Shown one piece after another: positions 1,520 through 18,119 of a DNA stretch of 63,319 nt. A program made the position numbers and the translations under genes. Origin of the DNA: a virus (taxonomy: Duplodnaviria; Caudoviricetes); the IMG/VR virus record IMGVR_UViG_3300044833_000023, positions 1-63,319 of that record. The stretch is one strand, 5' to 3'. The stretch's first letter is position 1; every line of letters begins with the position of its first letter. The notes beneath the pieces are model-generated. The model was not told the origin of the DNA, did not search any database, and saw nothing but the letters and a program-made list of their open reading frames with translations.

Positions 1520-1531
1520 TGTGGTTCCTTG

Positions 1532-2223: not shown

Positions 2224-2575
2224 AGTCCGTGATCCTTTTCTGATCTGCTACCGCCTGTTGAGCCAACTCGATACGCGCTGCGTTTGCATCGTTTTCAGCA
2301 TCGATCGTCGCATTCAGGTCGACGGTCTTTGCTTCAACCTCAGACTTGAGGTTCTTCATCGCTTCCCGTTCGTCGGAGATGCGGAACCCAACGAGGAAGG
2401 CCATCAGGACGATCATCACGAGCGCCATGAAGCGGGCTTCCGGCACGTAGGGGCCGATAACCGGGAAGTATTTCAACAGTGGGAAATAGCCGACGACCAG
2501 TGCGGCAAGGAGCACGACTGCATCGACGCAGAGTGCTGGATACGAGGTTGCGATAGTCCAGAAGATGTCGGCCAT
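2126..2575 (-). CDS. Putative i-spanin (Rz-like)
   Basis: N-terminal TM segments, then a coiled coil and a C-terminal Cys; directly downstream of the endolysin with TAATG coupling. Confidence 0.65.
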   Translation of the reverse strand: MADIFWTIATSYPALCVDAVVLLAALVVGYFPLLKYFPVIGPYVPEARFMALVMIVLMAFLVGFRISDEREAMKNLKSEVEAKTVDLNATIDAENDANAARIELAQQAVADQKRITDYEAALKLRPNGVCALTDDDRKWMRKPPAAGRR

Positions 2576-3054: not shown

Positions 3055-3341
3055 TATGCGTCCTTCTGCTGTGCGAAGAAGCGGGCAGCGCAGGCGGCCA
3101 CGGTCACGAGGCCGGAGAGCGCGGCGAAAATGCCGGGCGGGATCGGCGGCTTGACCTGCCAGGCGATGGCGACTTGGATCGCCACTTCGAGGCCGGAGAG
3201 GATCGCGGCCAGCACGATGAAGCGCACCGACCAAGATTTGGTCAGTACCCAGTGCCAGTCCTCGCGGAGCCGCGCATTGCCGCGCAAGTCCTCCCAAAGC
3301 AGAGCGAACCCCCTCTTTCCGGGGTCGTCGGTAACGGTCAT
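3054..3341 (-). CDS. Putative holin (two TM helices)
   Basis: 95 aa, W-x-W..KSWSVRF plus two hydrophobic helices ending AARFFAQ; GGAGG RBS; stop overlaps the endolysin ATG. Confidence 0.75.
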   Translation of the reverse strand: MTVTDDPGKRGFALLWEDLRGNARLREDWHWVLTKSWSVRFIVLAAILSGLEVAIQVAIAWQVKPPIPPGIFAALSGLVTVAACAARFFAQQKDA

Positions 3342-3355
3342 CGTCTTCCTCCAAT

Positions 3356-3383
3356 AAAAAAGGCCGCCCGGGATGGACGGCCT
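3356..3383 (-). terminator. Rho-independent terminator between the giant gene and the lysis cassette
   Basis: Minus strand reads AGGCCGTCC-ATCCC-GGGCGGCCT followed by a T run. Confidence 0.7.
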
Positions 3384-3405
3384 GTGAATTCGCAGGGCGA
3401 GAAAA

Positions 3406-6400
3406 TTAGTGCTCCCACGGGTGTTTCTGTTCGTATCGATGCTTCGCCCGCGCGACCGCATCAGCCTGGTCGTAGTCGATGCCGCGGAACACCTTGGCGA
3501 TCGGGATGTCGGTTGCCTTCGGTGTCTCGCCCTTCATGATCGAGCCTGCGGTATTGCCGACCTCGATGCCGAACCGCTTCTGCGCGCCGAACATCTGATC
3601 GGTAAGCTCGCGAATGTCCTCCGGGTATCGGTCGATCAGCCCGGAGTGATGCGCGTCGCCGCCGGTCCATGAATTCAGGGTCTTCGCGGCGGTCTTCCAA
3701 CCCTCTCCCGTCGGCATATAGTCGCCGCGAGGCTTGCGGCCGGACTCGGAATTCGGCCCCTTCTGGAACATGTCATTGTGGACGGGGTTGCCGAGCCAGT
3801 TCTTGTTCTCGATGACGTGCGCCAGAGGCCGGAGCAGTTCCGGCGTAATCATGTCCATCAGGTTGCCGAACTCGCCGAGCGGCGTGAACGCCATCAGCGT
3901 CGACTTCACCATTTCGGCCGCGTGCTCGCCGACCGTGATCTTGCTCTTGATGGCGCCGATCTTGTCGAGGAACATCCCCGTCAGGTGGTAGCCGAACGTC
4001 ATCGGGAGCGCGTAATTGTAGGCGTTGGGCAGCGCGTACTTCTGCGGGCGTCCCTGCGCGTCGCGCTCGAACGGGTTGAGGAAGATGAAGCCGAGAGCGC
4101 GCTCGAAGTCCGGAACCTTCTCGAAGTATGGATCGCCGTTGTCGTCGCTGCCGCCGAGCAGGTAGTTGTTCAGCGCCAGCGCCACGCCAGCGGCAAACAC
4201 ACCGGCGAACACCCGCCGCATCCGCCCGGATTGCGTCAGCGCGCTTGTCAGCCGCGTGCCGGTCCTAACCGCTGTGTTGTAGAACGGGAAGATCGTTCCC
4301 GCGACACTGGAGACAATCGCCCGCTTTTGATAGTTCACCGTCGCGTTGCGGGCGCGGTAGGCCGCGGCTTGCGGCGTCATGCCCTGATCGCGCGCCTGGG
4401 CGTAGGTCGCGAGCCGGGTCGCGTTGTCCCAGACGTTGAAGATTTCGTCGGTCTTGTCGGCGATGCCCTTGAGTACTCGAAGTGGGTTGAGCCGCGTGCT
4501 GGTGGTGATCTGCTTGAGATCGTCCACAAGCTCGTTCTTGATGGTGTCAATGTCCCGCATCGAGCGGAACGCCATGTTGCCGCCCTGCGCCTTCATCTCG
4601 GCCCAGTATTTGCCAAGCTGGCCCGACGGCCGCCCCTTCTCAAAGTTGGAGATCGCGCGCGAGGCCCGGCCGAACGCAGGGAACGCATCGGCCGTCCACT
4701 TCCATGGGCTATAGGCGCCGGTGTCGCGAAGCTGGTAGGCGTTGAGCGCGCCTTCAACCATGTAGCGGCCGAAGAAATGCCGAGCCGCGAAGTCAGGACT
4801 GTAGTGCGTCCACATGCTCTTGAGCTTGTTGACGCCGAGCAACACCTTGTTCAATCCTGGGAACGACCATGGCGAGTTGCGGTTGATCGACTGCGCCAGC
4901 TTCTCACTCTTGAACAGCATCGTCCGTGGAGCGCCGTTCCGCTTGAAGTTGACGGCGCCCTTGGCCATCGCGCTCGGGCTGGTATCGACCCAGCGAGCGA
5001 GGCCGGTTTTCGGATCGATCGTCTTCTTCGGAGTGCCCTTATTGAGGCTCACGAAGTCGTCGGTATTGATGCCGCCGTGCTTCAGCGTCGCAAGCGTTTC
5101 GGCGATCGAATTGTAGTGCATGTTGCGCTCGCCGCGCTCGATGGTGCGGTATGCCTGATCTATCAGGTGCACCATCGGATTGTCGGCCTTTGACATTCGA
5201 CCGAAGGCGCGCTTGGTCTCCGGGGCCCGGATGCCGATCGGGGAGCCCTTGCCGCCGAAATACTTCTCGTCGTCGATGTCGGCTTCCTCGAAGCCCTTGA
5301 AGGGCACGTAGTCGGGCCCGTTGGCCTTCCATGCGTCGATGGTGGCTTGGCTTTCGAGCCCGTAGTGGACCATCATCTGCCGGTTGAAATCGACGATGTT
5401 GCGGGTCTGCCGCCAGATGTCTTTGTAGGCTTGGCCCTGCGGCCCGCTCTCGAAGGCCCTGATCTTGTCGCGCGCCTCGTTGTTCGAGAAGCCAGAGCCG
5501 CCAGCGATGTTGTTGTCGCGCATCGCGTCATTGAACGGATGGCCGGGCTGATACAGCGGGCCGATGTTGCGGTTGCGCTCCAGCGCGCCCTTTGCCATCA
5601 GGTAGTCGCCCAGATCGGGCAGCGTGATCTCGGCCTTGTTCGCGGTCTCGATCAGCGGCTTGAGCAACCGGTTACGGAAATCGTTCGCCTGGTACGCGAC
5701 CTTGCCCGGGATCAGTTCCTTCTTGACATAGAACTGCATCGCGTCGGGCAGCTTCGACGCCTCGGGGAAGACCTTTTTGGCTTCCTCCGGGGTCAATCCC
5801 AGATACCGCGCCTCGACTTCCTTTTGCAGGAGTTTCTCGCGGTGGCTCAAATCGGAGAACGCTTCGACGAAATCGGCCTTCTTGCTGTCGTTGAACAGGT
5901 TGCCGATCGCCTCGCTGACGCGGCCGTTGGCCTTGGTGCGCTTCTCGAAGATCGACGCCAGCGGCTCGTCATCATGGATCGCCGCTTCCGGCCGCGGAGT
6001 GTCGCCCTTGGCCTTGGCGTATTTGCCGCGGTACGCCTTGTCGAAGATGTCCTCGTAGGTCTCAAAGCCGAGCCCGCGAAGGCCGTTGGCCAGGCGCTTG
6101 ATGGCTTCCCAGAGCCGGTGATACCAGCGGCGCACGCCGACATGCAGACCCTCGCCCTTGGAGCGGTCGGTCGCATAGTCCTCGAAACCGATGGCGCGGA
6201 CTTCCTCGGGATCGAGGCCGTCAGCCTGCTCTTTGCTGTAGCCCCGGGTCTTTCGGATGTAGTCGCGGATGCGGCCGGTCTCGCGCTCCATCAGCGCCCG
6301 CTCCTGCGGGCTCTGCAACTGGTACTCGATCGCGTGATACGCTTCGTGGAACGCGGCGCTGTCGACGCCGTGCAGCAACGCCAGCTTGATGAGATGCCGG

Positions 6401-9400
6401 CTCGGGTAATAGAGACCGCGCGCGCCGGGCGACCTGTCGGCCATGGCGCCCCAGCCGCCAGCGGTGCCTGCCAGCGACATCAGGTCGGGGCTGAATTCGG
6501 CCTTGACGTGATCGCCAACCAGATGTTGCAGGACATCGCGAATGAGGCCCTCGATCTCCGGCTGTTTTTCGGTAGCGGCTTCCGTGATGCTCGCCAGCGG
6601 TTCCTCGACCTTGGTCGGCTTCGGCGCCTCGGCCTTGAGCGTGAACACGGCGCCGAGTTCTTGCAGGCGCTTGATGGCTCCAAGGATATTGCCGTCGGTG
6701 ACGTCCGTAACCATGCGCCCGCTGCGCGAGATGAAGTCGCCAGCGGCCAGATCGATCAGCGGCTTGTCGAGGAAGAAGACGCCGCCCGTCTTTTTCGCCT
6801 TGTCGGTCGCGATGACGTATTCTTTGCTCCATCGCCCCTCCCTGCGGATCGAAACCGTTTGGCCTTTTGACCAGATCGTCTCGGTCGGGTTCCTGTCGAG
6901 CCAATCCCTGATCTCGAACGGGTCGTGGACAACGCGGCCCTTGTCGACCGCGTGCTTCTCAAGATCGAAGTCCCTCGACGTCAGGATGCCCTGCCGGACA
7001 CCGCCCTTGTCGTCGGTGTAGTTGATGATGTTGCCCTTGCGCCCGAGCCAGTCATAGGCCGCCAAGAGATTGCCGGTCGCGATGTAGCGTTCCTCGCGGG
7101 CGTCCGACTGCATGTGCTTGTAGCGGTCGAGCGTCTGCTCGGCGCTTTCGATCCAGCGTTGCAGCGGGACCACTTCCACGTCGAGCGCGCTTTCGCTGTC
7201 GGCCTTGCCGTCGGCATGAATGCGCGAGAACGGCAGCGTCATGTGTCGGCTGGCGTCCGCGATAGCGAATTCGGCCTTCCACGACGAGAGCGCCAGCGGG
7301 TTCTTGGTGACGCCCTTCTGCTCGACCTTGGTGATGATGCCGGTCAGGTTGCCGTCGGCCGTCTTCAGCGTGACGCGCTGACCGATACGGACCAGCTTGT
7401 GAACGGCGCTCCAACGGTCCTTGATGGCGTCAAACTTGCTCTTTTCCTTCGCCTGTTTCTCGGCGTCCGGCATCCCTTCGAGGATCGGCTTGATGTACTC
7501 GGCGAACTCCTTGATCGCGCGCTGGCGCTCGGCGATCTCGTTCGCGGCCGATGCTTTCCCGAGACCCTGATAGGTATCGCTCGCCTGGTCGAGCAGCCGG
7601 GCCAAGTCCTTGATCTCGGCTTTTTCGTCGGGCGCCGCCTGTGCGGTGCGGTCGCCGATCGCCTCGATGACCTTCCCCATGACCTCGGCCGGCGTGTACG
7701 GCTTGCCCAGGCGCGCGACGGAGACCTTCTCGACGTTGACCGGCGCGGCGAAGCGCGAATTGCTGTCGTTCTTCCTGCCCATAACCTCGGTGGTCTCCAA
7801 CGACTTCGCCTTGAGGTCGAAGGTCTTGGCTTCCATCGGGTTCGTGCCAGCAGCCGACAACTGCTTCATCATGTCTTCGTAGGCGCTCTCAAGCTCCTGA
7901 TAGAGGGCTTCCTGTTCGTGCAACGGTAGCAGCGGGATGCGGCCGGTCAGCTTCCGCATCGCGTCGGGGATGATGGCCCGGCCGCTCTCGGTGAACTTGA
8001 TCGGCATCGCCAGCCGCGGGTTCATCTCGAAGTTTTCCGAGAGGTAGTTGGCCGCTACGATGTCGCCGTATTCGTTGATGAAGTCGGGCACGTCCTTGGC
8101 GGTGACGGCGCTGGTCCGCGACGCCGTGGTGTTGGCATTGAGCGAGGCCATCTTCTTCGCGAGCACCGCGGCCGGGCGCTTCTCGGCCGGGATGTCGGCC
8201 ACGAATTGGGTGTAGCGGGGCAACACGACCTGTCCGGTGCGGTTGATGCGGCCGAGCAACTGCATGTGGGTGTCGACGTTGCCTTCCGGCTGCACGATCA
8301 TCATGTGCCGGACCGACTGATCGTTGAAGTCACGGCTGGCGTGCGCGGACAGGCCGGTCGATCCGGATTGGTTGATGATGAGCGCGTGATGGCCGCCGTT
8401 CACCGGCTTGGTATTGAACTTGCGCAGGGTCTCGTTTTTGCCTGCGGTCGTCAGGTCTTTGCCGGGGCGCTTGCGAAGTACCGGGTCGCCCTTGCCGGAA
8501 TAATCGAGGATCAGGCCGCGTCCGGTGATCTCGCCGACGCTGTAGCCTTCCTTTTTCAGCCGCCAGATCAGATGGTCGATCGGAGAGACCGGCATCTCGG
8601 ACAGGTTCATCGAGCCGATGATCTCTTTGGCGCGCTCGTAGGACGCGACGCCCGCAGGGCCGAGTTCCTCGTCGGTCAGGCGCCGACGTTCGGCCTTCTC
8701 GCCCTTCTTCATGAAGGGCTTTTTGATGGTTATCATCCGCGTGCGCTCAAGGTACTTGTGCAGCACGTCGGAGAAGTCCGCGGGCATCTCGTCACCGACC
8801 TTGACGCCGATCGTGTCCGCGTAGTCCTTGAGGAAGCTCTCCATCGTGTTCGCGACGGTCAGGACCGGCTTCTCGCCGCGCTTGATCGCCTCGATCGCCG
8901 CTTGCGCGGCCGGCTCAACCTTCATCGCCAGCAGCATCTGGTTGATGACGTTGTGCATGATCGACGTGAAGTTGGTGGACTGTGCGCCAGAGTCGCCGGT
9001 CGCCCCGTCGTAGCCGGTGGTGCCGCCCTCGCCCATCAGGTCGGCGTTGACGTTCTCCATGGCCGCTTTGACGGCGGCGCTGAAGTCCTGAATGGCCGAT
9101 AGGCCGCTGGAAATCGTATTGTAGTTCTCGCGGTCCACGCCGACGAGCGGCGTGTTGTACTCGATGCCGGCGAACGATCGCTCGCGGCGGATGTACTGCC
9201 CGTCCTCGGCGAGCATGGTCGCGACAGCCTGTTGCATCGGTACGCCGCCGCGCGCGATAGCCTCGCCCAAGTCCTTCGGGTCCGCGACCGCCATCTTCAT
9301 GTTGGTGGCGGAGTAGAGGTCCATCACGTCCGGGCGCTTGGCGTAGGTCGCCGACGAATAGAACACGCCGTTGGCGTTCTGGATCAGTTCGCGCGCGAAG

Positions 9401-12400
9401 CCGGAGCGGTTGGCCGGCTCGTTGGCCGCCTTCTTCCGCCCAACCTCGGTGCCGCCCGCGTTGTGGCTCTCGTCCATGATGACGACGGAGTGTGGCGCGA
9501 TGGCTTTGAGGAAGGCGCGGCGGCCGGTGTCCTCGCCCTTGACCGTCTGCATCTGCGAATAGTTGGTGAACACCATATCGAAGTGCTTCTGGAAGGCTTC
9601 CTTGCCGGAAACGCTGCCGAGCACGCGATCATGCTCTTTCAGTTGCCCGTTCTTCAGCGTGGCGCCGCCCTCTTCGAGCGGCATGTCGAGATCGGCGTTG
9701 GTGGCGAGGATGCGCGGCGGCTCGTCGGTCATGCCGATCGCCTTCATGTCGCGGTAGATGTCGGCGTAGAGGTTGGGGCTCATCGTCACAAAGACCGGGA
9801 TGCGGTCGTTCTTGATCGCCCACTTGATGATCGCGGCATTGACGCGGCCCTTGCCGATGCCGGTCTGGTCTCCAATGATGAAGCCGTTGCCGTTCTTGAT
9901 GTTGTCGATCGCGAGGCCCAGCGCGTCGATCTGCTCGGCACCGAAGTATTTCGGAAGATCGGCCTTCTTGTAGTCGAGTTCCTTGGCGACAAAATCATCG
10001 ATCGGCCCGACACGGCGCTCAAGATCGTCGAGCGAGGCGTCTTGCGGACGCTTGAGGTTGGCGGGGACGAGCGTGTCGAGGTTCTCGATCTTGCTCTTGG
10101 GGGTGTTGCGGACCTGACCCTCGGTCTCGGTCGCGGTGCCGGCCTTCGCGCGCTCCCGATCTGGGCTCTCGTCCTTGGTCTGCTCTTTCTCTCCGAGCTT
10201 GATCTCGCCTGACGTCAAGTCTTGGATGAACCGCTTGAGGTACTGCGCCATGTCCTGCATGGCTTCCTTGCCGAACTTCAGCGTGTCGCGCATGTGCTCG
10301 ACCATGCGGCGGATCAGTTCGCCGATGTCGCCCCAGAAGCTGCGGTAGTGCTCGGCCGCCGTCTTGAAGAACGGCTTGGCCTTGGCGTAGGTGTCCTCGT
10401 CGAAGGCGGGGCCGGCGCCGTGGGTCTTGCCGCCGCCGAACAGTTGATAGAGGCCGGAGAAGGCGGCATCGGTCGCGGCCGACATGTTCTCGCCGGCGGA
10501 TTTGACGTTCTCTTTGGTGGTGCGCGGGCCGCCCGATGTGCGCGGGCCAGCAGCCGGCTTGCTAACGGGCTCGGCGTAGGCGTCCTTGATCGCGCCGCTG
10601 ATGAGTGCGTCGAGGTCTAATCCAGATGATGATCCGATGGCAGGAGCAGCACTATCAGATCGATCGGCCGGGTTATGTTCTCCGGCTCCAAGTGCATCTT
10701 GATCGCCGCCTCCGCCAGCACCGGCATTCCCGGCTCCTGAAACAGGCTGTTGCACCACGCCCGCGGGGTTTTCCCCTCCGGCTGCGGCTCGATCCCCACC
10801 CTGTCCAGCATCTCCAGTATCTCCGATGCCTGATCCCGCCAATCCGGGTCGCTCGACATCATCACTGACATGCTGTCCGCCAGCCGTTCCAGCATCGCTT
10901 CGGTTCGGTTGTCCATCGAGCAGCCCTCCCAGGCCGGTCCAATCGTTGAAGATGCGCGGTACATCGACCGCTGGCAAGGCCCGGGAGGACTTCCCGCGGC
11001 CGTTTATGACGATCACATCAACCGGCCAGCCGGCGCCCTGACGCTCATAGAGGTCGCCTGAGACCGTGAAATGATCGGTGACGTCGTACTTGTCGTACAG
11101 CGTCTTGAAGAATTCGCGCTTGGCCTTGCCGTTGTAGGCATCCGACCGGGCTTCCCGGGTCGTCGCCATCCTGTTGACGCCGCCGAGGATCAGCACGGCC
11201 TTGCCGTTGTCCTTCATGGCGGCCAGGGCGCGCAGCGCGATGGCGTGATCGATCTCGTGGGTCTGATAGTTGGGCTGTATGTCGCCCATGTCGAACACCT
11301 TGGAGACCACGCCGTACTGCGTTGACTCCCGCACCGCGCCGAACGGCGGGTTGGCGATTACGACGTCGTAGGTCGGATTTTGGTGGCGCTCCAATGCGTC
11401 TTTGTTGCTGACGTTGAAGCCCTGCTCTTTCAGGTTGCCTGCGCGATCCGGGTTGATCTCGTTGGCGATCGTGAGCTTGGGGTCGGCGCCGATCAGGAGC
11501 GCGCCGTTGCCGGCGGTCGGCTCATAGACCGTTGTGTCCTTCGTGATGCCCGCGAGTTCGGAGGCGATATAGCCCAGCGGTACCGGCGTCGAATATGCCT
11601 GGTCGCGAACCGACGTCGACGTGCGCGTGCCGAGACGGGGCTGGCGGCCGTACAGGCCCACCAGCGCGTCGTAGATTTCCTTCGGCGTCCCGCCAGCGTC
11701 CACGATCCCGCGCGCGACCTTGACGATGCCGAATTCGATGGCTTCCTCGGTGGCCTTCGGGTCTCCGGGGAAACCCGCGTCGTGGGCAAACTTGCGCGCC
11801 GCGAGGATGTTCGTGAAGTCGAGGCCGTCGGTGAAGTGCTTGGCGAAGGCGTCGGAGAGCGACTGCTTGCTTGCCTCATCGACCGCGATCATCTCGTGGA
11901 TCGGCATCGGCTGCGGTCGCGGAACCTCAACGCGCGTGCGGGTGACGATCGGCTCCGGCTCGCCTTCGACGGCTTGAACGCGCGTGTTGATGCCGTGCTT
12001 GCCCTCGCCCGTGGTCAGGGCCTTGAGGACGCGCTCGAAGTCCGCGTTGATGGTCTTGCGTTCCTCGCCGACCGGGTACGGGTTGCCCTTGAAGCCTGCC
12101 GCGTAGCGCGTCGGCTCGACGCCCTGCACGAGGTACTGTGACGTGAAGCCTTCCTCTTGGATTTTGTCGAAGACGAAGGCTTCGCCCGCGCGTGCGAGCA
12201 ACTCAAGCGGCCGGCGCCAGTAGTCGCCCTTGCCGGAGAGCTTAGTCGCCTCCTTCAGGTAGTCCGTCGGAACCACCTTGCGCGCGATCGTGTCCGCCTT
12301 CTCGGCGTTCGTGATGTAGTGATCCCGGATGCCGATATTTTCCTCGGCCTTCTTCAGGCCCATGGACGACCCGCCCTTGCGCATCCGGTCCTTGATCCGG

Positions 12401-15400
12401 TTGGCGTGGTCGATCCAGGCTTGCCGCTGGCCCTTGTCATGTTCGAGCTTCTTGGCGTGGTCGGCGATGGCCTGTTCGTCATCCTGCTCTTTGTTGAACA
12501 GGTCGTGCATCAGCTTGTTGACGCCGACGCGGAGGCGCGGCTTCAGATGCGTGTTGGTTTCGTTGAACGCCGAGGCGTCGCTCATGGAGCCCAAGAAGCG
12601 CCCGCGCCACGCCTTCGCGGTGTTCTTCGGCGTGACGCGGCCGTTTGAAATCCATTTCGCGCCGCCCCCATAGGGGTTCGACGTTGCGAATTCGCCGAGG
12701 TAATGGTCGAGCGCGTGTATCCACTCGTGCGCCAGCGAGCCCGCGCCGTTGATCTTCGTCATGTTGATGACGGTGCGGTCAGCCTCGTAGTGCGCGGCGC
12801 CCGCGCCCTTGCCGCCCTTGCCGCGGGAGCCGAAGCCGATGGCGAGCGTGCCGTCGAGCGACATCGCCTTGGCGGGAAGATTGAGGATACGCGCGAGGTC
12901 GTGCAGCGCGTCAAAGGCGAGGTTGAGCACCTTCTGGCGTTCGTCGTTTGCCGCCCAGTTGCCGAACTCGACGCCACGGAAGCCGAAGGTGTCCTTGAAA
13001 TCGTCGGAGCCGACGTCGCGATCCTTGCGATAGTCCGGGCCGTCGCGGTTGATGGCGTCGAGATGCGGGCGGTTCGGCTCCTGTTCCTCAGAGCCGCCTT
13101 TGCTGATCTTGGCGTAGGCTTCCTTGGCTGCGGCTTCCGCGAGTTCGCGGGTGCCGAACTCTCCGACCTTTCCGCCGTTCTTGCGGCGAACGATCCACAC
13201 CTTCTCTTTGACCGCTTTCTTTTCGTAGTCGTATGGAGTGTAGGGATCGATCTCGAACAGCCGCTGCCACGGCTCCATGTTCGGGAAGCCTTTGGCGACG
13301 GCGCCTTCGGCGGTGCGAACGTCGGCGCCCATCACCGTGAGGGGATTGTTGCGGCTACCGCGCTGCCTAATCGCGGCGAGGACCGAATAACTGTTGGTGC
13401 CGAGCGCGGCGGAGACGGCCTGACTGACCTTCTTCATCTCATCGACGGTCTTCACCTTGGCGAATTCGTCGCGGATGGCTTTCAGGGCATCGAAGTAGTT
13501 GTCGCGATCTTCTTTGCTGACCGTATCGTTGTAGCGGTTGGTCGGCTTGACGGCGATGCGGTCGTAGACGCGCTTCATCAGCGCAGCCGCCACGGGCGCG
13601 ACGCCGCTATCGACGACGGCCGCATAATCCGGGCGCGGCCAGATGTTGTGCTTGGTGACGTTGGTATCAAGCTCGCCGCCGGTCATGCCGTCGAGTGCGG
13701 CCTTGGTCAGGCCGCCGGTCCATTGGTCCTTGCGCGCGCCGCCGATCTTCTCGCCAACGTCCTCGATCTTCTGCTTTTCCGGCTCGGGGACGGGCTCATC
13801 GACGGACGGCTTTTTTTCTTCTTCGGCCTTCTGGCGCCGCTTCGTCTCGCGGTCATGCAGTTGTAGCGCAGCGGTCAGAACGTCAACTTCCTGATCGCTC
13901 TCGGTTTTGCCGCGTTCCAAGATGTCCCGAGCCGAAGTAGCCATGGGGCTTGTGCGGTGCCATTTGTGCTCTTTGTCTTTGAGCGCAAATGTGAGGGCGG
14001 CTTTCTCGTTCGGCGTGAGGTTCGGGTCGCCTTCCTCTACAACGGTGTCGTTGGCATCTTCGGCGGCAGGCTGGTGTTCAGTGGCGTCGCCGGTTTTGTC
14101 CCCAGCGGTTTTGTTCCCGCGGGCGGCTGGCTTAGCGGTGCCGCCGCCTGCGGTTGAGCCATCGCCGGGCTTGCCTGTTTCGCCTTGTGCGCCATTTTCG
14201 CCGCCGCTCGCAGCGACCGGAGTTTCTGTTGCACTACCGGCGCCGACTTGCCCAGATGCGGGGCGTTCTTGCTCAGAAGGTGTGCCGCTGCCAGATGCCC
14301 CTTGGCTTCCGGGCTGTAGTAGTGTGTTGACTTCTTCGCCATAGGCTTGTTCCGCCTGCTGATGAGTGAGGAATTTCTGGCCGACGAGGTTCTCGATGAC
14401 GGCGTGGCCGAACGCAACGTGGGGCAGCATCCCCTCGTTCTCTGCGAGGATTTCCGCCGCGCGCGCGGTGTCTACCGGCAGAACGTGGTGATAGTCCTCG
14501 CCGAGCGCCGCCTCGATCTGGGCGTGATGCTCTTTCGTCGGCTCCGCGGTGACGGGCGCGGGCGGCATTACCTCGGCGCGGCCGATGGCGCCGATCGGCT
14601 GCGAGTGGTCGCCGTTGCGGAGCCAATCCTTGAATTCGTCCGGCGCCAGCGCCTTCATACCGCCGATGCGATCAGCGCCGCCGTCGGTGTACGAGTTCGC
14701 GTAGGCGTGAAGTGCCTCGATCGGGTTGCGGAACCCGGTCATGATCTTGTGTTCGTCGAATTCGCCCTTACCGCCAGCGTGGTGCTGGTCGATGACGAAG
14801 ACGTGCTGGCTGTCCGGATGCGCGCCGATGAAGACGTCGAGCGGTTCGCCGTCGGCGCCCGTCGTACCCTTGATGCGGCCGTACGCAACCGGCATCTTGA
14901 CTTCCCACGGCGTACCGTCTTGCTCGGTGCCCTTGCGGGTGTCGCCGACGCCGGTCTCCAGGCTGATCGAGTTCTTGCCGGTCAGCCCGAGATGCTCGAT
15001 CTCGGCGTGACCGTGCTTGAAGTTCGTTGCCGCGGCCTGCGGGTCGGTCGGGTCTTTCGCGACGACTTCGCTCGCCTTGAGCACATCGTCCGCAGAGCGG
15101 ATGTTGATGGGATTGTCGCGGGTGCCTGTGCCGGTCGTTTCGGCCGTGGGCTGCGGTACCGGCTTTTCGGCCGTATTTTGCTGGGCTTCTTGCTCTGGCG
15201 GTCGCTCGCTCGCCGATCCGCGCGCCATCGCCTCTTGAAACCGGCGCCGTCGCTCGGCCGGGGTCATGACCGCGATGTGAGCGTCTGTCCAGCCGGCGCG
15301 CTTCAGGCCCTCGCGCTCGGTCCGCTCGGTCGCGCTCTCGCCTTGCGGATTGAGCGGTTCTTCCTTGTTGTTGACGGGCGCTTCGCCTTGGCTGGTGTGC

Positions 15401-16977
15401 TTGTTGACCGCTGCGACCAATTCCTCGTGCGACATCGCGGCGATGTCTTCGTCCGAATGACCGAAATAGCGCAGGATGCGCTCCAGCTTCGTGCGAACGT
15501 CGGTCTGCTCGTTGGTCTTCTGGCGTTCGCGCTTCTGGCGTTGCTGGCCTTGACCAGTGTTGCCGTTGCCGGCGCCGCCGCCGGGATTGCTGCCGCCAGT
15601 ATCGGAGCCAGTCCCCGTTGACCCCGCGCCAGTGTCCGGATTGATGTCGTCGTGCGGGGGCGGGGGCGGCGGGAGGTCCGGCGGAGTGTCCGGGGTGATG
15701 TCCGGCGGAGTGTCCGGCGTGGGCGGAACGTCGCCCGGCTTCTTTCGGCCTTCCATGTAGGCATGGCCCGCGCCGAGCAATACGCCAGTGATGAGCGACG
15801 CGATGACGCGCTTGATGTCGGGGCTGTATTCGGCCTTGGGGTCGTAATACTTCTGCGCTATCTGGTCGCCGAGATACTCTTGCGCCTCTACGACGGCCGC
15901 CATGGTGCCGGCGAATGCCGCGGTCTTCCGGAACGCGGCCGAGGCAACGTACTTGTTGAGGGTTTCTGCCGCCCAGCCGCTCAATGCAGGGGCGAATTTC
16001 TTGACGGGTGTGAGTATGACGCCAAGAGGGACAGCGCCGAGCGCGCCACTAACGAGCGCCGACATACCGGCTGCCTTAGCCGCGTCTTCATCGCTTGCGT
16101 TCTTGGCTTTCGCCGCCTCAAAGGTGTCGCCTGCGGATTGCGCGGCCATGGTGGCGGCGCCGAGGGTGATACCAAGTGCGGGATTGATTGCGCCGACGGC
16201 CACGGGCGCCACCATGCCGCCAACCGCAGGGCCAAGATACTTACCGCCGAAGCTCTCCTTTTCAGCCGGCGACATCGGGATCGTGTCTTCGGCTGATTTC
16301 TTGATCGCAGCGCCGCCCTTATAAAGCGGGCGCTCCGTTACCGGAACAGACGGCTGGGCGTTGAAGGTGCCAAACTTCTGGCGGAGACCTTCCATTTCGG
16401 CCTGTGCGTCTGCACCGCCAGAGATGCGCTGCAAGGCCGCGTTGTAGTCCATCTGCAATCCGCGATCGGTGATCGTGGTCAGCGCCTGCTTCATCAGTTT
16501 GGCTTTGCCGCCCGCATCCAGCGTGCCAGCCGTCCCAAGTTGATCGATCAGCGCGGATGCTTCCGGCTTCTCGGGGGTGTTGTCCTTGATCGCGCCAGCT
16601 TGCAGGATCGCGCCGCCGCTCTTGATGAAGCCCTGCGCGGCGCCCTTGCCTGCTGCAACGGTCTGGTCGATCGGACCGAGTGTCGGGACCGGCGCTTCCG
16701 GCGGCTTCACTACCTCGCCGAACGATGACGGTTTCGGGCCAGTGACGACGGGCTCGCCGTAGGATGACGGGGGTTTTTCCGCTACGGGCTCGACGGGCTT
16801 CTCGTCGATGTGCCGCGTCTTGCGGTCCATCCGGCGCATGAGCGTGTCGGACAAGCGGCCGGGATCGGCAACTCCGCTATCGGAGATGTCGCCTGGGAAG
16901 GTCTGTCGTGCGAGATCGTCTACGCCCTGACCGGGATCATAAGGCGCGTCTGCCCCGAAGGCATCGGCGAGAGCCAT
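3406..16977 (-). CDS. Giant 4523-aa polyvalent virion/ejection protein (DarB-like): PPase-like, LPD5/LPD1-like, N6-adenine MTase, strawberry-notch-like SF2 helicase, HExxH metallopeptidase, LPD38-like C-terminus
   Basis: YGRIKGTTGADGEPLDVFIG..DEHK (~14.7-15.0 kb); KIEDVGEKIGGARKD (~13.77 kb); FGFRGVEFGNW..GSLAHEWIHALD..YWRRPLELLARAGE (~12.0-13.0 kb); EPTAGNG and NPPF (~11.3-11.6 kb); GDQTGIGKG, DESH, SAT, QLLGRINRTGQ (~8.2-9.9 kb); HEAYH (~6.34 kb). Confidence 0.9.
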   Translation of the reverse strand: MALADAFGADAPYDPGQGVDDLARQTFPGDISDSGVADPGRLSDTLMRRMDRKTRHIDEKPVEPVAEKPPSSYGEPVVTGPKPSSFGEVVKPPEAPVPTLGPIDQTVAAGKGAAQGFIKSGGAILQAGAIKDNTPEKPEASALIDQLGTAGTLDAGGKAKLMKQALTTITDRGLQMDYNAALQRISGGADAQAEMEGLRQKFGTFNAQPSVPVTERPLYKGGAAIKKSAEDTIPMSPAEKESFGGKYLGPAVGGMVAPVAVGAINPALGITLGAATMAAQSAGDTFEAAKAKNASDEDAAKAAGMSALVSGALGAVPLGVILTPVKKFAPALSGWAAETLNKYVASAAFRKTAAFAGTMAAVVEAQEYLGDQIAQKYYDPKAEYSPDIKRVIASLITGVLLGAGHAYMEGRKKPGDVPPTPDTPPDITPDTPPDLPPPPPPHDDINPDTGAGSTGTGSDTGGSNPGGGAGNGNTGQGQQRQKRERQKTNEQTDVRTKLERILRYFGHSDEDIAAMSHEELVAAVNKHTSQGEAPVNNKEEPLNPQGESATERTEREGLKRAGWTDAHIAVMTPAERRRRFQEAMARGSASERPPEQEAQQNTAEKPVPQPTAETTGTGTRDNPINIRSADDVLKASEVVAKDPTDPQAAATNFKHGHAEIEHLGLTGKNSISLETGVGDTRKGTEQDGTPWEVKMPVAYGRIKGTTGADGEPLDVFIGAHPDSQHVFVIDQHHAGGKGEFDEHKIMTGFRNPIEALHAYANSYTDGGADRIGGMKALAPDEFKDWLRNGDHSQPIGAIGRAEVMPPAPVTAEPTKEHHAQIEAALGEDYHHVLPVDTARAAEILAENEGMLPHVAFGHAVIENLVGQKFLTHQQAEQAYGEEVNTLLQPGSQGASGSGTPSEQERPASGQVGAGSATETPVAASGGENGAQGETGKPGDGSTAGGGTAKPAARGNKTAGDKTGDATEHQPAAEDANDTVVEEGDPNLTPNEKAALTFALKDKEHKWHRTSPMATSARDILERGKTESDQEVDVLTAALQLHDRETKRRQKAEEEKKPSVDEPVPEPEKQKIEDVGEKIGGARKDQWTGGLTKAALDGMTGGELDTNVTKHNIWPRPDYAAVVDSGVAPVAAALMKRVYDRIAVKPTNRYNDTVSKEDRDNYFDALKAIRDEFAKVKTVDEMKKVSQAVSAALGTNSYSVLAAIRQRGSRNNPLTVMGADVRTAEGAVAKGFPNMEPWQRLFEIDPYTPYDYEKKAVKEKVWIVRRKNGGKVGEFGTRELAEAAAKEAYAKISKGGSEEQEPNRPHLDAINRDGPDYRKDRDVGSDDFKDTFGFRGVEFGNWAANDERQKVLNLAFDALHDLARILNLPAKAMSLDGTLAIGFGSRGKGGKGAGAAHYEADRTVINMTKINGAGSLAHEWIHALDHYLGEFATSNPYGGGAKWISNGRVTPKNTAKAWRGRFLGSMSDASAFNETNTHLKPRLRVGVNKLMHDLFNKEQDDEQAIADHAKKLEHDKGQRQAWIDHANRIKDRMRKGGSSMGLKKAEENIGIRDHYITNAEKADTIARKVVPTDYLKEATKLSGKGDYWRRPLELLARAGEAFVFDKIQEEGFTSQYLVQGVEPTRYAAGFKGNPYPVGEERKTINADFERVLKALTTGEGKHGINTRVQAVEGEPEPIVTRTRVEVPRPQPMPIHEMIAVDEASKQSLSDAFAKHFTDGLDFTNILAARKFAHDAGFPGDPKATEEAIEFGIVKVARGIVDAGGTPKEIYDALVGLYGRQPRLGTRTSTSVRDQAYSTPVPLGYIASELAGITKDTTVYEPTAGNGALLIGADPKLTIANEINPDRAGNLKEQGFNVSNKDALERHQNPTYDVVIANPPFGAVRESTQYGVVSKVFDMGDIQPNYQTHEIDHAIALRALAAMKDNGKAVLILGGVNRMATTREARSDAYNGKAKREFFKTLYDKYDVTDHFTVSGDLYERQGAGWPVDVIVINGRGKSSRALPAVDVPRIFNDWTGLGGLLDGQPNRSDAGTAGGQHVSDDVERPGLAGSGIGDTGDAGQGGDRAAAGGENPAGVVQQPVSGAGNAGAGGGGDQDALGAGEHNPADRSDSAAPAIGSSSGLDLDALISGAIKDAYAEPVSKPAAGPRTSGGPRTTKENVKSAGENMSAATDAAFSGLYQLFGGGKTHGAGPAFDEDTYAKAKPFFKTAAEHYRSFWGDIGELIRRMVEHMRDTLKFGKEAMQDMAQYLKRFIQDLTSGEIKLGEKEQTKDESPDRERAKAGTATETEGQVRNTPKSKIENLDTLVPANLKRPQDASLDDLERRVGPIDDFVAKELDYKKADLPKYFGAEQIDALGLAIDNIKNGNGFIIGDQTGIGKGRVNAAIIKWAIKNDRIPVFVTMSPNLYADIYRDMKAIGMTDEPPRILATNADLDMPLEEGGATLKNGQLKEHDRVLGSVSGKEAFQKHFDMVFTNYSQMQTVKGEDTGRRAFLKAIAPHSVVIMDESHNAGGTEVGRKKAANEPANRSGFARELIQNANGVFYSSATYAKRPDVMDLYSATNMKMAVADPKDLGEAIARGGVPMQQAVATMLAEDGQYIRRERSFAGIEYNTPLVGVDRENYNTISSGLSAIQDFSAAVKAAMENVNADLMGEGGTTGYDGATGDSGAQSTNFTSIMHNVINQMLLAMKVEPAAQAAIEAIKRGEKPVLTVANTMESFLKDYADTIGVKVGDEMPADFSDVLHKYLERTRMITIKKPFMKKGEKAERRRLTDEELGPAGVASYERAKEIIGSMNLSEMPVSPIDHLIWRLKKEGYSVGEITGRGLILDYSGKGDPVLRKRPGKDLTTAGKNETLRKFNTKPVNGGHHALIINQSGSTGLSAHASRDFNDQSVRHMMIVQPEGNVDTHMQLLGRINRTGQVVLPRYTQFVADIPAEKRPAAVLAKKMASLNANTTASRTSAVTAKDVPDFINEYGDIVAANYLSENFEMNPRLAMPIKFTESGRAIIPDAMRKLTGRIPLLPLHEQEALYQELESAYEDMMKQLSAAGTNPMEAKTFDLKAKSLETTEVMGRKNDSNSRFAAPVNVEKVSVARLGKPYTPAEVMGKVIEAIGDRTAQAAPDEKAEIKDLARLLDQASDTYQGLGKASAANEIAERQRAIKEFAEYIKPILEGMPDAEKQAKEKSKFDAIKDRWSAVHKLVRIGQRVTLKTADGNLTGIITKVEQKGVTKNPLALSSWKAEFAIADASRHMTLPFSRIHADGKADSESALDVEVVPLQRWIESAEQTLDRYKHMQSDAREERYIATGNLLAAYDWLGRKGNIINYTDDKGGVRQGILTSRDFDLEKHAVDKGRVVHDPFEIRDWLDRNPTETIWSKGQTVSIRREGRWSKEYVIATDKAKKTGGVFFLDKPLIDLAAGDFISRSGRMVTDVTDGNILGAIKRLQELGAVFTLKAEAPKPTKVEEPLASITEAATEKQPEIEGLIRDVLQHLVGDHVKAEFSPDLMSLAGTAGGWGAMADRSPGARGLYYPSRHLIKLALLHGVDSAAFHEAYHAIEYQLQSPQERALMERETGRIRDYIRKTRGYSKEQADGLDPEEVRAIGFEDYATDRSKGEGLHVGVRRWYHRLWEAIKRLANGLRGLGFETYEDIFDKAYRGKYAKAKGDTPRPEAAIHDDEPLASIFEKRTKANGRVSEAIGNLFNDSKKADFVEAFSDLSHREKLLQKEVEARYLGLTPEEAKKVFPEASKLPDAMQFYVKKELIPGKVAYQANDFRNRLLKPLIETANKAEITLPDLGDYLMAKGALERNRNIGPLYQPGHPFNDAMRDNNIAGGSGFSNNEARDKIRAFESGPQGQAYKDIWRQTRNIVDFNRQMMVHYGLESQATIDAWKANGPDYVPFKGFEEADIDDEKYFGGKGSPIGIRAPETKRAFGRMSKADNPMVHLIDQAYRTIERGERNMHYNSIAETLATLKHGGINTDDFVSLNKGTPKKTIDPKTGLARWVDTSPSAMAKGAVNFKRNGAPRTMLFKSEKLAQSINRNSPWSFPGLNKVLLGVNKLKSMWTHYSPDFAARHFFGRYMVEGALNAYQLRDTGAYSPWKWTADAFPAFGRASRAISNFEKGRPSGQLGKYWAEMKAQGGNMAFRSMRDIDTIKNELVDDLKQITTSTRLNPLRVLKGIADKTDEIFNVWDNATRLATYAQARDQGMTPQAAAYRARNATVNYQKRAIVSSVAGTIFPFYNTAVRTGTRLTSALTQSGRMRRVFAGVFAAGVALALNNYLLGGSDDNGDPYFEKVPDFERALGFIFLNPFERDAQGRPQKYALPNAYNYALPMTFGYHLTGMFLDKIGAIKSKITVGEHAAEMVKSTLMAFTPLGEFGNLMDMITPELLRPLAHVIENKNWLGNPVHNDMFQKGPNSESGRKPRGDYMPTGEGWKTAAKTLNSWTGGDAHHSGLIDRYPEDIRELTDQMFGAQKRFGIEVGNTAGSIMKGETPKATDIPIAKVFRGIDYDQADAVARAKHRYEQKHPWEH
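10617..10916 (-). CDS. Candidate nested gene (99 aa) in the +1 frame inside the giant gene
   Basis: GGAGG 8 nt upstream of ATG; mostly G/C-ending codons; helical, globular-looking sequence MDNRTEAMLERLADSM...; the host frame is a Gly/Ala/Asp-rich linker here. Confidence 0.6.
   Translation of the reverse strand: MDNRTEAMLERLADSMSVMMSSDPDWRDQASEILEMLDRVGIEPQPEGKTPRAWCNSLFQEPGMPVLAEAAIKMHLEPENITRPIDLIVLLLPSDHHLD
14037..14342 (-). CDS. Candidate nested gene (101 aa, basic) in the +1 frame inside the giant gene
   Basis: MAKKSTHYYSPEAKGHLAAAHLL...; AGGCGG RBS-like element upstream; matches a low-complexity linker of the host frame. Confidence 0.5.
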   Translation of the reverse strand: MAKKSTHYYSPEAKGHLAAAHLLSKNAPHLGKSAPVVQQKLRSLRAAAKMAHKAKQASPAMAQPQAAAPLSQPPAGTKPLGTKPATPLNTSLPPKMPTTPL

Positions 16978-18119
16978 TATTCTTCGTCGTCCGCGGCGTC
17001 AGCGGGGCTTGAAGGAATAGACGCCTGGGCATCGAGAGCACTCTTAGATGCTTCGGACTTCTTTGTCGCCCTCAACACGCGCGTCTGACCCTTCTCGTCC
17101 ACAAAATACTGATCGAAGGGTTGATTGGGCTTGACGACCTGATCGAACGGCTTGCCGTTGAAGGCCGCTTGTGGAACCGGGTTGACTTGCGACATGCCCG
17201 GCGTCTTCGCGATGCCTGCGGCGGACTGCGGATTGAGGCCCATGCTCGTCAGATGCTTGTCCTGCACCGCCGAGACCAACGCCTGGTGGTCCGCCTGCGC
17301 CTTGGCTATCGCGGGCGCGTTGCCGTCCTTGATGGTCTGTTCGAGAGCTTTCTCACTGGCCTTGATGTTCGGATCGTTCTGCGCCAGCCGCATCGCATCC
17401 TGATAAAGCTGTTGTGGCGGCTTGTTCCACGCGCCCTTGTTGCCGCCATTGGCCTTGAGATTTTGGAGGTTCATCTTCGCCGTTTCCAGCTTGACCTGCG
17501 CGAGCGAAGTCGTGGCGCTATCGTCTCCGGCCTTCTGCTTCGCCTGGATCAACTTGAGCATCTGATCGACGCGCTTCTCGTCGCCCTTGGTCCCGCCCTC
17601 GATCGTGGAACCAGCGGAGCCCGCGAACGCCGCGAGGCCGGGCTTATTCCAGTTGTCGCCGACGGACTTGAGGCCAGCGCCGAGCTTGTTCTTCATGCTG
17701 GTTTCGTCGGAGGAATTCATGCCGAACGCGCGGCCGAGTATCCCGCGCGCCTGACCGGGGTTCGCTGCGGCGGCTGCGGGGGCTCCTGCTGCGCTGCTGT
17801 CCGGCGGCGCCAGCGACATCGGAGGGCCGGCGTTGGGCGTGACGGTCTGCGTCTGCGTGTCGTTCATCGCCATCGGCGGACCGCCAGCGGTCGGCGTTGC
17901 GTTGGGTGGAATGTCGGCCTGCTGTGGCGGCGGCTGCATCACGGGCGGCGAGGATTGGATCGGCGGCTGCGGCGGCATCGGGGCGGGCGGCGGCTGTTGA
18001 GCGGGCGGCGCCATCTGCGGCTGCTGTTGAGCGGTTCCCGAAGCCTGCATCGTCGCGGCCTCCGGGCTCTGCGAGCCGATGGTGCTGCCGAGATCGGTCA
18101 GCCAATCGAGAAGTCCCAT
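16977..18119 (-). CDS. Putative DNA ejection (internal virion) protein
   Basis: Q/P/A/G-rich, helical; sits between the pilot-like gene and the giant gene, as in podovirus ejection clusters. Confidence 0.65.
   Translation of the reverse strand: MGLLDWLTDLGSTIGSQSPEAATMQASGTAQQQPQMAPPAQQPPPAPMPPQPPIQSSPPVMQPPPQQADIPPNATPTAGGPPMAMNDTQTQTVTPNAGPPMSLAPPDSSAAGAPAAAAANPGQARGILGRAFGMNSSDETSMKNKLGAGLKSVGDNWNKPGLAAFAGSAGSTIEGGTKGDEKRVDQMLKLIQAKQKAGDDSATTSLAQVKLETAKMNLQNLKANGGNKGAWNKPPQQLYQDAMRLAQNDPNIKASEKALEQTIKDGNAPAIAKAQADHQALVSAVQDKHLTSMGLNPQSAAGIAKTPGMSQVNPVPQAAFNGKPFDQVVKPNQPFDQYFVDEKGQTRVLRATKKSEASKSALDAQASIPSSPADAADDEE

Follow-up and report, generated by a model that had tools for sequence, protein, structure and literature searches.

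The stretch 10617-10916 (minus strand) of the viral DNA analysed here (63,319 nucleotides, positions 1 to 63,319 of the IMG/VR record IMGVR_UViG_3300044833_000023, hereafter the window) is interpreted as a genuine protein-coding gene nested in a giant polyvalent protein gene, a reading to which a probability of about 0.85 is given and for which no peptide or ribosome data exist. The nested gene has its own Shine-Dalgarno (SD) sequence, ATG and stop, and is found in the same place and frame across a large, mostly uncultured phage clade. An initial annotation of the window had proposed that the linker of the giant protein is, at this point, the shadow of a real overprinted gene; homology, conserved nesting, selection in the +1 frame only and confident predicted folds all support that proposal. 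Ribosomes would start internally on the late (virion-module) mRNA to make a small folded protein, and from the same bases those translating the giant frame would make a disordered tether that joins the methylase to the helicase.

The giant gene and the nested open reading frame

The features on which the argument rests are as follows, in the order in which they are read:

3406-16977, minus strand: giant polyvalent (DarB-like) protein gene, 4523 aa, identified from Pfam domains and neighbouring genes
10918-11880, minus strand: N6-adenine methylase module, residues about 1700-2020, with Pfam N6_Mtase/Eco57I at about 1850-1931
10924-10930, minus strand: SD-like GGGAGGG, 7 nt before the nested ATG, seen in the sequence
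10615-10917, minus strand: giant-frame linker, codons 2021-2121, Gly/Ala/Asp-rich and of low complexity, with atypical A/T-ending codons
10617-10916, minus strand: nested gene of 99 codons and a TAG stop, +1 relative to the giant gene, from the ORF and its translation
10617-10620, minus strand: nested stop TAG over giant codon 2120, TTA (10620-10618), by codon count
10153-10614, minus strand: extra helical domain that separates the nested gene from the helicase, residues about 2121-2275
9028-10140, minus strand: strawberry-notch-like helicase N-lobe, residues 2280-2650, with Pfam AAA_34/ResIII at 2349-2613 and supported by alignment

The giant protein carries the Pfam domains InPase, LPD1, N6_Mtase, AAA_34, Helicase_C_4 and LPD38, and its gene lies among portal, virion structural, tail fibre and endolysin genes, where it is the final gene of the virion module, with the endolysin gene next. 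A large polyvalent protein is defined by combining numerous unrelated enzymatic and LPD domains and by being encoded in a virion or transfer context, and the giant gene fits that definition; that its product is packaged in the virion and shields incoming DNA from restriction is inferred from gene order only. As the Pfam matches to methylase and helicase fall at about 1850-1931 and 2349-2613, the nested ORF is placed between these two enzymes, and the methylase module directly upstream of it is 41-70% identical in 60 viral and 17 MAG loci.

The nested ORF runs from an ATG at 10916-10914 to a TAG at 10619-10617 and covers giant codons 2021-2120. Having both a start and a stop of its own within a longer ORF that is read on the same strand in a different frame, it satisfies the structural requirement for an overprinted gene. 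Its coordinates, its length of 99 aa and its translation agree with the initial annotation, as does a GGAGG 8 nt upstream of the ATG, now recognised as the core of the GGGAGGG at 10930-10924, a motif which in the giant frame is part of the Leu-Gly-Gly-Leu-Leu at the end of the methylase domain. The codon that carries the nested stop is the sole TTA among the 294 Leu codons of the giant gene. A longer variant of 115 aa, starting from an ATG at 10964, can also be read, and the Met at 10916 is the start in all homologues of the nested protein.

The extra helical domain that follows the nested gene has a normal GC3 (.85-.97). It was considered as a co-evolving partner of the nested gene and rejected: it is located after the nested gene in 10 matched loci (9 of the short form, together with L037) and before the methylase in six long-form loci, and no co-variation with the nested gene was seen across the matched loci.

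Composition of the two frames

The description of the giant frame as a Gly/Ala/Asp linker with many A/T-ending codons is supported by codon counts, since such codons make up 62 of 101 in the linker but only 718 of the other 4423 in the giant gene; of the Asp codons, 11 of 12 in the linker are GAT, compared with 70 of 298 elsewhere. GC at giant codon positions 1/2/3 is.80-.88/.60-.65/.43-.47 across the linker and.63/.45/.83 in the whole giant gene; because the positional GC of the giant frame is shifted in this way, normal coding periodicity falls in the +1 frame, where the nested stretch has coding-like values of.62/.48/.78. The frame-specific profile agrees with the earlier observation that the +1 frame uses mostly G/C-ending codons. 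Codon usage is genome-like in the nested frame and not in the linker frame, an oddity attributed to the selection of a folded protein in the former and to the need of the latter only to stay open.

Openness of the +1 frame is, taken alone, no more than chance: the giant gene contains 39 alternative-frame open stretches of at least 80 codons. Only one of the 39, the nested ORF, combines coding-like positional GC with a sequence that is not rich in Arg, Pro, Ser or Thr. A second nested gene was sought in the other low-GC3 linker of the giant gene (codons 811-961) and rejected, since conservation there is stronger in the giant frame.

The family of the nested protein

A phmmer search with the 99-aa peptide, one of the checks initially suggested, returned 34 relatives at E<=1e-3 (best 2.4e-21), most of which are proteins of about 100 aa that match over their full length. 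A profile search gave 33 matches, 8 of which are 63-81% identical and 99-110 aa long. Nine close sequences share 38 invariant columns, with identical start Met and C-terminus, and the C-terminal family motif LLPSDHHLD is invariant in all nine. The window ORF, which has the N-terminal helix and the C-terminal motif common to the family, matches profile A1 over positions 1-99 (138 bits, E 6e-42), but this profile includes the window ORF itself, and the independent support is that of the phmmer matches.

The family, which is unnamed and is described by the profiles A4 and A6, comprises acidic proteins of about 90-150 residues in a short and a long form, whose profiles align with each other at a probability of 79% (hhalign, E 1.6e-5). 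The net charge of the window protein is about -12, the pI is below 5.5 in 42 of 43 viral nested proteins, and the family median pI is 4.5. Searches of Pfam, PHROGs and NCBIfam with short and long forms produced no family at thresholds, only weak rows (E.003-.08). GenBank phages and PLSDB plasmids yielded no tblastn match to the 115-aa peptide or to the long-form peptides, and scans of viral contigs with the window peptide, as well as scans with a degenerate pattern of the C-terminal motif, found nothing.

Conservation of the nesting

The initial annotation had asked whether homologous giant genes keep the +1 frame open with a ribosome binding site and an ATG, and they do. Of the 60 viral loci 58 are usable, and in each of them the +1 frame stays open for 80-226 codons directly after the methylase. 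Of 47 distinct viral +1-frame peptides, 45 match one or both family profiles; 23 of the profile matches (12 to A4 and 11 to A6) are independent of model building, and 7 peptides match both. In the MAG loci, a profile match follows the methylase in 15 of 17, the records being labelled Proteobacteria, Acidobacteria, Cyanobacteria and Planctomycetes. The genomes of the loci that carry nested relatives range from 37 to 69% GC. The homologous giant ORFs of L012 and of L013/L014 have the family gene in their +1 frame, and the GGAGG/GGGAGGG and ATG of the window recur in L012 and L013. Two further loci (L002 and L003) had been taken for relatives without the nested gene, an interpretation overturned by the finding that their +1 ORFs are the long form of the family.

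An SD-like motif with ATG is present in 43 of 47 distinct viral loci, so that the nested gene has an initiation signal which is its own and conserved. AAGGAG is found in 29 of these 43, and in 15 of 18 low-GC loci, where the expected joint codon use is about.14 (background AAG.45, GAG.32). Moreover, a +1-frame stop lies directly before the nested ATG in most long-form loci.

The two-frame layout has been observed in 58 viral, 16 MAG and 3 metagenome loci, which are independent assemblies, and in one cultured phage genome. The latter is that of the Bacteroides phage BS-TP4, which carries a more distant, unannotated nested copy; its GenBank record annotates the giant CDS only. The candidate ORF lies in the +1 frame immediately behind the methylase match of gp3. 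This phage, which grows on B. salyersiae, is reported in 31.3% of 930 gut viromes (PMC12694917). The Acinetobacter phage MD-2021a, with a more distant methylase-helicase protein, has no nested ORF. The prediction that gene callers miss the ORF holds for the BS-TP4 record and fails elsewhere, since on some contigs the JGI gene calls include it, labelled 'hypothetical protein'; it is therefore missed often, not always.

Copies of the family also occur outside giant genes, and in two of them (L008 and L006) the giant frame carries stops. The copies of L004/L005 and L008 are intact and have no giant gene in the sequence at hand, which argues against a strict dependence of the nested gene on the giant gene. 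Other copies outside giant genes are broken, by a stop in L006/L007, by a frameshift in L015 and by truncation in L009-L011 and L016.

Selection on the two frames

Estimates of dN/dS for both frames, as initially recommended, were obtained with a purpose-written script modelled on OLGenie, and they place purifying selection in the +1 frame only. For 15 independent pairs, dNN/dNS of the nested frame is 0.40 (bootstrap CI 0.34-0.47), a value that denotes purifying selection, against a dNN/dSN of 1.09 (0.95-1.27) for the giant frame over the same DNA, where none is detected. Of 300 long-form pairs, 297 score higher in the nested than in the giant frame, as do 27 of 36 short-form pairs; in the short forms, amino-acid identity hardly separates the two (nested.369, giant.363, the nested value being higher in 19 of 36 pairs only). 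In the two most diverged comparisons with the window, dNN/dNS of the nested frame rises to about 1.1, probably as a result of saturation.

Base composition gives a second view of the same constraint. GC at nested codon position 2 is held at.30-.50 while genomic GC3 spans.21-.93, and across that range the third positions of the giant frame act like codon second positions. No stop interrupts the giant frame over the nested ORF in 57 of the 58 viral loci, and the remaining one is cut by its contig end; given the nested protein, such openness would arise by chance with a P that varies between less than.001 and.27 among 12 loci, in all of which the frame is open. The giant frame is thus unconstrained in sequence, yet kept stop-free, far more often open than chance allows.

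Contigs from four soil runs were also compared with the window; among the 24 sequencing runs listed for it, none is of RNA. One of them (901 nt, 93% identical) has 9 listed differences in the ORF and 14 more unlisted, too few for conclusions on selection; 5 of the 9 fall at nested codon position 2 and none at an invariant residue.

Alternative explanations

The openness of the +1 frame could be a compositional by-product, in which a Gly/Ala/Asp linker poor in hydrophobic residues cannot create +1 stops and the peptide is neither made nor functional. Since a +1 stop can arise only where giant codon position 2 is a T, and such linkers have few of these, openness is partly automatic; the 39 open stretches of this GC-rich gene point the same way, and so does the second low-GC3 linker, whose +1 ORF is less conserved than the giant frame. 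What makes this explanation very unlikely is that HMMER-significant relatives exist outside open giant frames, where that frame has stops; that Met, stop and SD are conserved, with AAG-GAG retained in AT-rich genomes; that the ratio of 0.40 is confined to the nested frame (1.09 in the linker frame); that giant third positions behave like second positions over the whole range of GC3; and that AF2 predicts a fold at a pLDDT of about 92. Somewhat less improbable, though still unlikely, is a relic, that is, a small gene which formerly stood alone, was engulfed as two large genes fused across it, and is now recognisable but neither expressed nor needed. Genome-like codon usage in the nested frame alone would be expected had the small gene come first (in published work on overlapping genes, the frame with such usage is reportedly taken as the older reading), and many copies outside giant genes are broken. 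A dead frame, however, would not give a dNN/dNS of 0.40, nor is it compatible with SD, ATG and stop remaining intact in over 70 loci whose methylases are only 41-70% identical.

Two further explanations concern how the +1 frame is reached. By programmed +1 frameshifting, the giant product would be truncated after the methylase and end in a folded +1 tail, without any separate small protein; both frames share an mRNA, the ORF begins exactly at the end of the methylase domain, and in the window the +1 frame is also open over 29 codons 5' of the nested ATG. A product of this kind would have no independent start and would be entered from the upstream frame, and the nested ORF does not answer that description: its Met and SD are conserved, homologues of about 100 aa exist as free-standing, separate ORFs with the same start Met, and entry from upstream is impossible in most long-form loci because of the +1 stop directly preceding the ATG. 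Frameshifting is accordingly held to be highly improbable. An assembly or sequencing artefact, in which two compensating indels shift a true domain of the giant protein out of frame, has in its favour that the record is a metagenome assembly and that coding periodicity changes frame abruptly at either end. It can hardly be credited, given the recurrence of the layout in the viral, MAG and metagenome loci counted above (58, 16 and 3) and in a cultured phage, the separate start and stop of the nested frame, and the match, free of indels across 10654-11200, between the window and contigs from other soil runs.

Predicted structure

AlphaFold (AF2) predicts a compact, five-helix protein for the window gene (pLDDT 91.9, pTM.84) and is similarly confident for the long form (pLDDT 92.5, pTM.86). 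Foldseek found no match at E<=1e-3 to the short form in PDB and BFVD, and none to the long form in PDB. In wide searches with VIA-align, the best Z was only 3.5 for the short form, a CARD-like hit tied with others and therefore no clear match, and only 3.0 for the long form; the best ESM Atlas score (0.80) was to unnamed clusters and uninformative. This failure to find solved structural relatives is no evidence that the fold is new. Prediction of a complex of the nested protein with the methylase module and the helicase N-lobe returned a score of 0.00, which is no answer and speaks neither for nor against binding.

Comparison with known systems

Overprinted phage genes are already known as a kind, and the nested gene is an additional case. 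In lambda, Rz1 is a complete small gene within Rz, on the same strand and in the +1 frame, with its own start signal, and both products are made; Rz and Rz1 are lysis proteins of similar size that bind each other. The gene described here is likewise a complete small same-strand +1 gene with its own start signal inside a larger phage gene, but its host encodes a 4523-aa multi-enzyme protein and the overlap is restricted to a disordered linker; no sequence or fold relation exists between Rz1 and the nested protein. In hepatitis B virus, the flexible spacer between the enzyme domains of the polymerase is overlapped by preS, with selection mainly on the other frame. A poorly conserved inter-enzyme spacer read in a second frame as a functional protein is common to both cases, although preS belongs to an animal virus and is a partial overlap with a larger envelope gene, whereas a whole small gene fits into the phage linker.

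The giant gene itself, which encodes a multidomain protein and lies at the end of the virion module, resembles that of the 4515-aa, virion-associated DarB-like gp69 of the Bcep22-like phage JC1. Nevertheless, gp69 is not a detectable sequence relative: tblastn of the window methylase and helicase gave no match at E<=1e-10 to Bcep22-like or P1 records, the only matches at this threshold being to BS-TP4 and the Acinetobacter phage MD-2021a. According to PMC9144972, gp69 has been shown in the virion by mass spectrometry, and P1 DarB requires the further small proteins DdrA, DdrB and Hdf. The nested protein has no detectable similarity to named Dar components in Pfam, PHROGs and NCBIfam. In so far as the texts of PMC5512222 and PMC9144972 were accessible, no nested gene is reported in large polyvalent proteins, and the word 'overlapping' has 0 occurrences in the accessible text of the former.

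Proposed function

Functional proposals have as their context that the giant gene closes the virion module and that the nested proteins are acidic. The proposal that the small protein works with the DarB-like methylase-helicase module is an inference without binding data, to which somewhat less than an even chance is given; it would then assist folding or packaging, or else hold the enzymes in check inside the producing cell. The functions suggested in the initial annotation, a chaperone or inhibitor for the adjacent domains or an anti-defence protein, are likewise guesses. The guess of a partner comes from P1, which needs small accessory proteins to load DarB into heads. Alternatively, an independent early or late effector, for instance an acidic anti-defence protein, may be inferred, and this is considered rather unlikely. 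Ocr and ArdA are small, strongly acidic DNA-mimic proteins tied to restriction escape, and the nested protein, being small and acidic, resembles them in charge only; unlike these elongated, DNA-like molecules, its folds are predicted to be compact and helical or alpha/beta, and sequence searches (Pfam, PHROG, NCBIfam) gave no match, structure searches no clear one.

A more encompassing reading, which taken as a whole remains tentative and has the odds clearly against it, makes the nested gene an obligate, co-inherited partner of the methylase-helicase core of virion-delivered giant proteins. Coming from the same mRNA, the small protein might meet the nascent giant protein and either load it into the capsid or silence its enzymes until ejection. 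The linker, on this hypothesis, would owe its existence solely to the fusion of two large genes by reading through the small one; overprinting would then be a route to gene fusion, the fold of the small protein would be without precedent among solved structures, and the arrangement would span a large, mostly uncultured clade reaching a common human-gut Bacteroides phage.

Implications

A switch of GC3 that is specific to one frame within a long gene can be used as a detector of hidden genes. The case described here is, moreover, a clean natural example of dual coding, in which one frame is folded and selected and the other is only required to be open. As BS-TP4 is cultured and widespread in gut viromes, the hypothesis is directly testable. 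The presumed role of giant polyvalent (DarB-like) proteins is to be injected along with phage DNA and defeat host defences, and their folding, loading and control are poorly understood; to this system the nested gene adds a conserved component, found in at least 70 phage and prophage loci.

The nested ORF and its host gene

The window is a complete viral record of 63,319 bp with direct terminal repeats. Its giant gene closes the virion module (portal, virion structural and tail fibre genes), the endolysin gene coming next, and the encoded protein carries the Pfam domains InPase, LPD1, N6_Mtase, AAA_34/ResIII, Helicase_C_4 and LPD38. Because of this domain set and of the position at the end of the virion module, the giant gene is a phage 'large polyvalent protein' gene of the DarB-like kind. 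The layout of its product is similar to that of the 4515-aa virion-associated gp69 of the Bcep22-like phage JC1 (PMC9144972), while searches gave no sequence match between the giant protein and Bcep22-like phages. Two His-Glu-x-x-His motifs of the zinc-peptidase type, recognized by eye only, lie outside the Pfam domains. The features concerned are:

3406-16977, minus strand: giant gene, 4523-aa ORF
10916 (ATG) to 10619-10617 (TAG), minus strand: nested ORF, 99 codons, +1 frame
7 nt upstream of the nested ATG, minus strand: GGGAGGG

The nested ORF is located between the methylase and the helicase of the giant gene, and the coordinates, frame and upstream motif in the initial annotation proved exact. 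The giant-frame reading across it is a Gly/Ala/Asp-rich linker, in which 62 of 101 codons end in A or T, against 16% in the remainder of the gene, and codon positions 1/2/3 have a GC content of about.85/.62/.43, compared with.63/.45/.83 for the whole gene; shifted to the +1 frame, this is a normal coding pattern. The openness of the +1 frame alone means little, since 39 open stretches of at least 80 codons occur in alternative frames of the giant gene, and since a +1 stop requires T at giant codon position 2, which is rare in a hydrophobic-poor linker. The nested ORF is the only coding-like stretch among the 39. A telling detail is that the sole TTA among the 294 Leu codons of the giant gene is codon 2120, which carries the nested TAG.

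A second low-complexity linker exists at 14217-14547 (minus strand; giant codons ~811-921). Here GC3 is down to.50-.57, and a +1 ORF extends over 144 codons. A second nested gene is unsupported there, the giant frame being better conserved in relatives (E 1e-39 to 1e-28) than the +1 frame (1e-25 to 1e-5).

The protein family

Judged from sequence, the predicted product of the nested ORF belongs to a real protein family. A phmmer search of 1.84 billion representatives gave 34 matches at E<=1e-3, nine of them at <=1e-10 (best 2.4e-21), nearly all being proteins of ~95-105 aa aligned end to end. A profile search of a 5.8-billion-protein set gave 33 matches, including eight of 99-110 aa with 63-81% identity; some are named by JGI only as 'hypothetical protein'. 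The first Met, a C-terminal LLPSDHHLD and 38 invariant columns are common to nine close sequences. No model for the family was found in Pfam, PHROGs or NCBIfam. One phmmer match, P0012 (1713 aa), contains eight near-identical repeats, matched by the window peptide in eight stretches (E 7e-10), and looks like an unrelated helical repeat protein.

Conservation of the nesting

A methylase-alignment scan recovered 60 viral loci (41-70% identity, GC 37-69%). In all 58 usable loci, 80-226 codons of the +1 frame are free of stops from the methylase end on, against only 2-71 codons of the +2 frame in 56 of them. The +1 peptides, which are clearly proteins, are of two types, a window-like short form and a long form, 128-154 aa in length, in which a Trp and a Pro close to the N-terminus are invariant. 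Family profiles matched 45 of the 47 distinct peptides (short-form profile 12, long-form profile 40, both 7); all 12 short-form-profile matches and 11 of the long-form-profile matches were independent of model building. The two profiles align to each other in hhalign with a probability of 79% (E 1.6e-5).

Among loci from metagenome-assembled genomes (MAGs), labelled Sphingomonas, Rhodospirillaceae, Acidobacteria, Rubrivivax, cyanobacteria, Pirellula and others, 15 of 17 are recognized by at least one profile, three of them by both. In the cultured Bacteroides phage BS-TP4, a +1 ORF of ~120 aa occupies the corresponding position and matches the profiles weakly (E ~.003); in GenBank the methylase, the helicase and this ORF are all without annotation:

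L078 (BS-TP4, PQ571277.1), 1511-17686: whole region one 'hypothetical protein' CDS, gp3

The more distant methylase-helicase protein of Acinetobacter phage MD-2021a shows many +1 stops and no nested ORF; the nested feature therefore has a boundary.

A metagenome scan yielded 14 loci. L012 and L013/L014 contain a 40-41% identical copy directly 3' of the methylase, with GGAGG and ATG as in the window; it occupies the +1 frame of a homologous giant ORF, which has at least 2586 codons in L012 and at least 3865 in L013/L014. Copies outside an intact giant gene are mostly damaged:

L006 (6523-6819) and L007: in-frame stop at the invariant Trp54; small integrated element with integrase, AlpA-like and DUF1376/DnaT-like genes, adjoined by a SurA-like gene
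L015: frameshifted copy
L009-L011, L016: truncated copies
L004 (515-890) and L005: intact copy, 73% identical, between the groEL 3' end and a 5'-truncated RecD-like helicase gene
L008: intact copy; giant frame with stops

The L004/L005 arrangement is present in two independent assemblies and still includes the Shine-Dalgarno (SD) sequence, along with the last ~70 nt of the methylase.

L013 and L014 are identical giant and nested gene copies on one 475,698-bp metagenome contig, spaced by 62,956 bp, about one phage genome length, which suggests tandem prophages or a concatemer. Compared with the window protein, L012 carries ~880 additional nt within the helicase N-lobe (10686-11569), across which the giant frame is still open; they may represent a mobile insertion or an intein-like element. 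In the Acidobacteria MAG contig L082 (2704-3143) the giant frame ends 11 nt past the nested stop, which suggests that the giant gene of this lineage is split at the linker; in L084 and L093 it likewise stops, within 1.3-1.8 kb. A helical domain (giant residues 2121-2275; window 10153-10614, minus strand) lies 3' of the nested gene in 10 matched loci (nine short-form and L037), but in six long-form loci (L024, L025, L028, L029, L067, L072) it precedes the methylase by ~300 residues; domains of the giant protein have thus been shuffled.

Initiation signal

In 43 of the 47 distinct viral loci an ATG is preceded by an SD-like motif; AAGGAG itself is present in 29 of these 43. In 15 of 18 AT-rich loci the giant-frame Lys-Glu codons are AAG-GAG, in genomes where AAG makes up.45 of Lys and GAG.32 of Glu codons. 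Entry into the nested frame by frameshifting is ruled out in the many loci where a +1 stop immediately precedes the ATG.

Selection on the two frames

OLGenie provided the manner of our own site-class counts, made on independent pairs of 57-96% identity, each locus being used once.

Site-class ratios in the two frames
Frame; ratio; bootstrap CI; pairs
Nested; dNN/dNS 0.40; 0.34-0.47; 15
Giant (linker); dNN/dSN 1.09; 0.95-1.27; 15

Alignments favour the nested over the linker frame in 297 of 300 long-form pairs and, by score, in 27 of 36 short-form pairs, where the frames are nearly tied by identity (nested.369 vs giant.363). GC at giant-frame third positions of the linker is held at.30-.50 across genomic GC3 of.21-.93, as would be expected of a codon second position. 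The fit was poorer in the most diverged window pairs (ratios ~1.1) and in one 93% relative in reads, with five of nine listed changes at nested position 2, none of the listed changes being at an invariant residue.

Giant-frame openness was simulated in twelve loci by synonymously recoding the nested protein at local codon frequencies. For the window, the chance of an open giant frame was P=.17; in 5 of the 12 loci it was P<=.001. In reality, the giant frame has no stop within the nested ORF in 57 of 58 viral loci, the last ending at a contig edge. Both frames are kept. Homology, conserved nesting and selection thus support the proposal of the initial annotation that the linker is the shadow of a real overprinted gene.

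Origin, possible role and novelty

Judged by codon usage, the small gene would be the older frame; methylase-helicase proteins without a nested ORF are more widely distributed, which would argue for the opposite order. AlphaFold2 predicts compact folds with confidence for the window protein (five helices and a loose C-terminal tip, pLDDT 91.9) and for the long form (a small sheet and six helices, pLDDT 92.5), neither of which was placed among known structures by structure searches. The nested proteins are acidic (median pI 4.5; 42 of 43 viral ones below 5.5). Internal initiation on the late mRNA would yield the small protein, which may act together with the methylase-helicase core, a role inferred from its fixed position beside that core while other domains shuffle, and from the analogous precedent of the small Dar accessory proteins of P1.

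In full-text literature searches, no earlier description of a gene nested within a polyvalent or DarB-like protein gene came up, and the word 'overlapping' does not occur in the paper defining polyvalent proteins (PMC5512222). The nested gene is a new gene family, of a function not identified, and a new example of phage overprinting.
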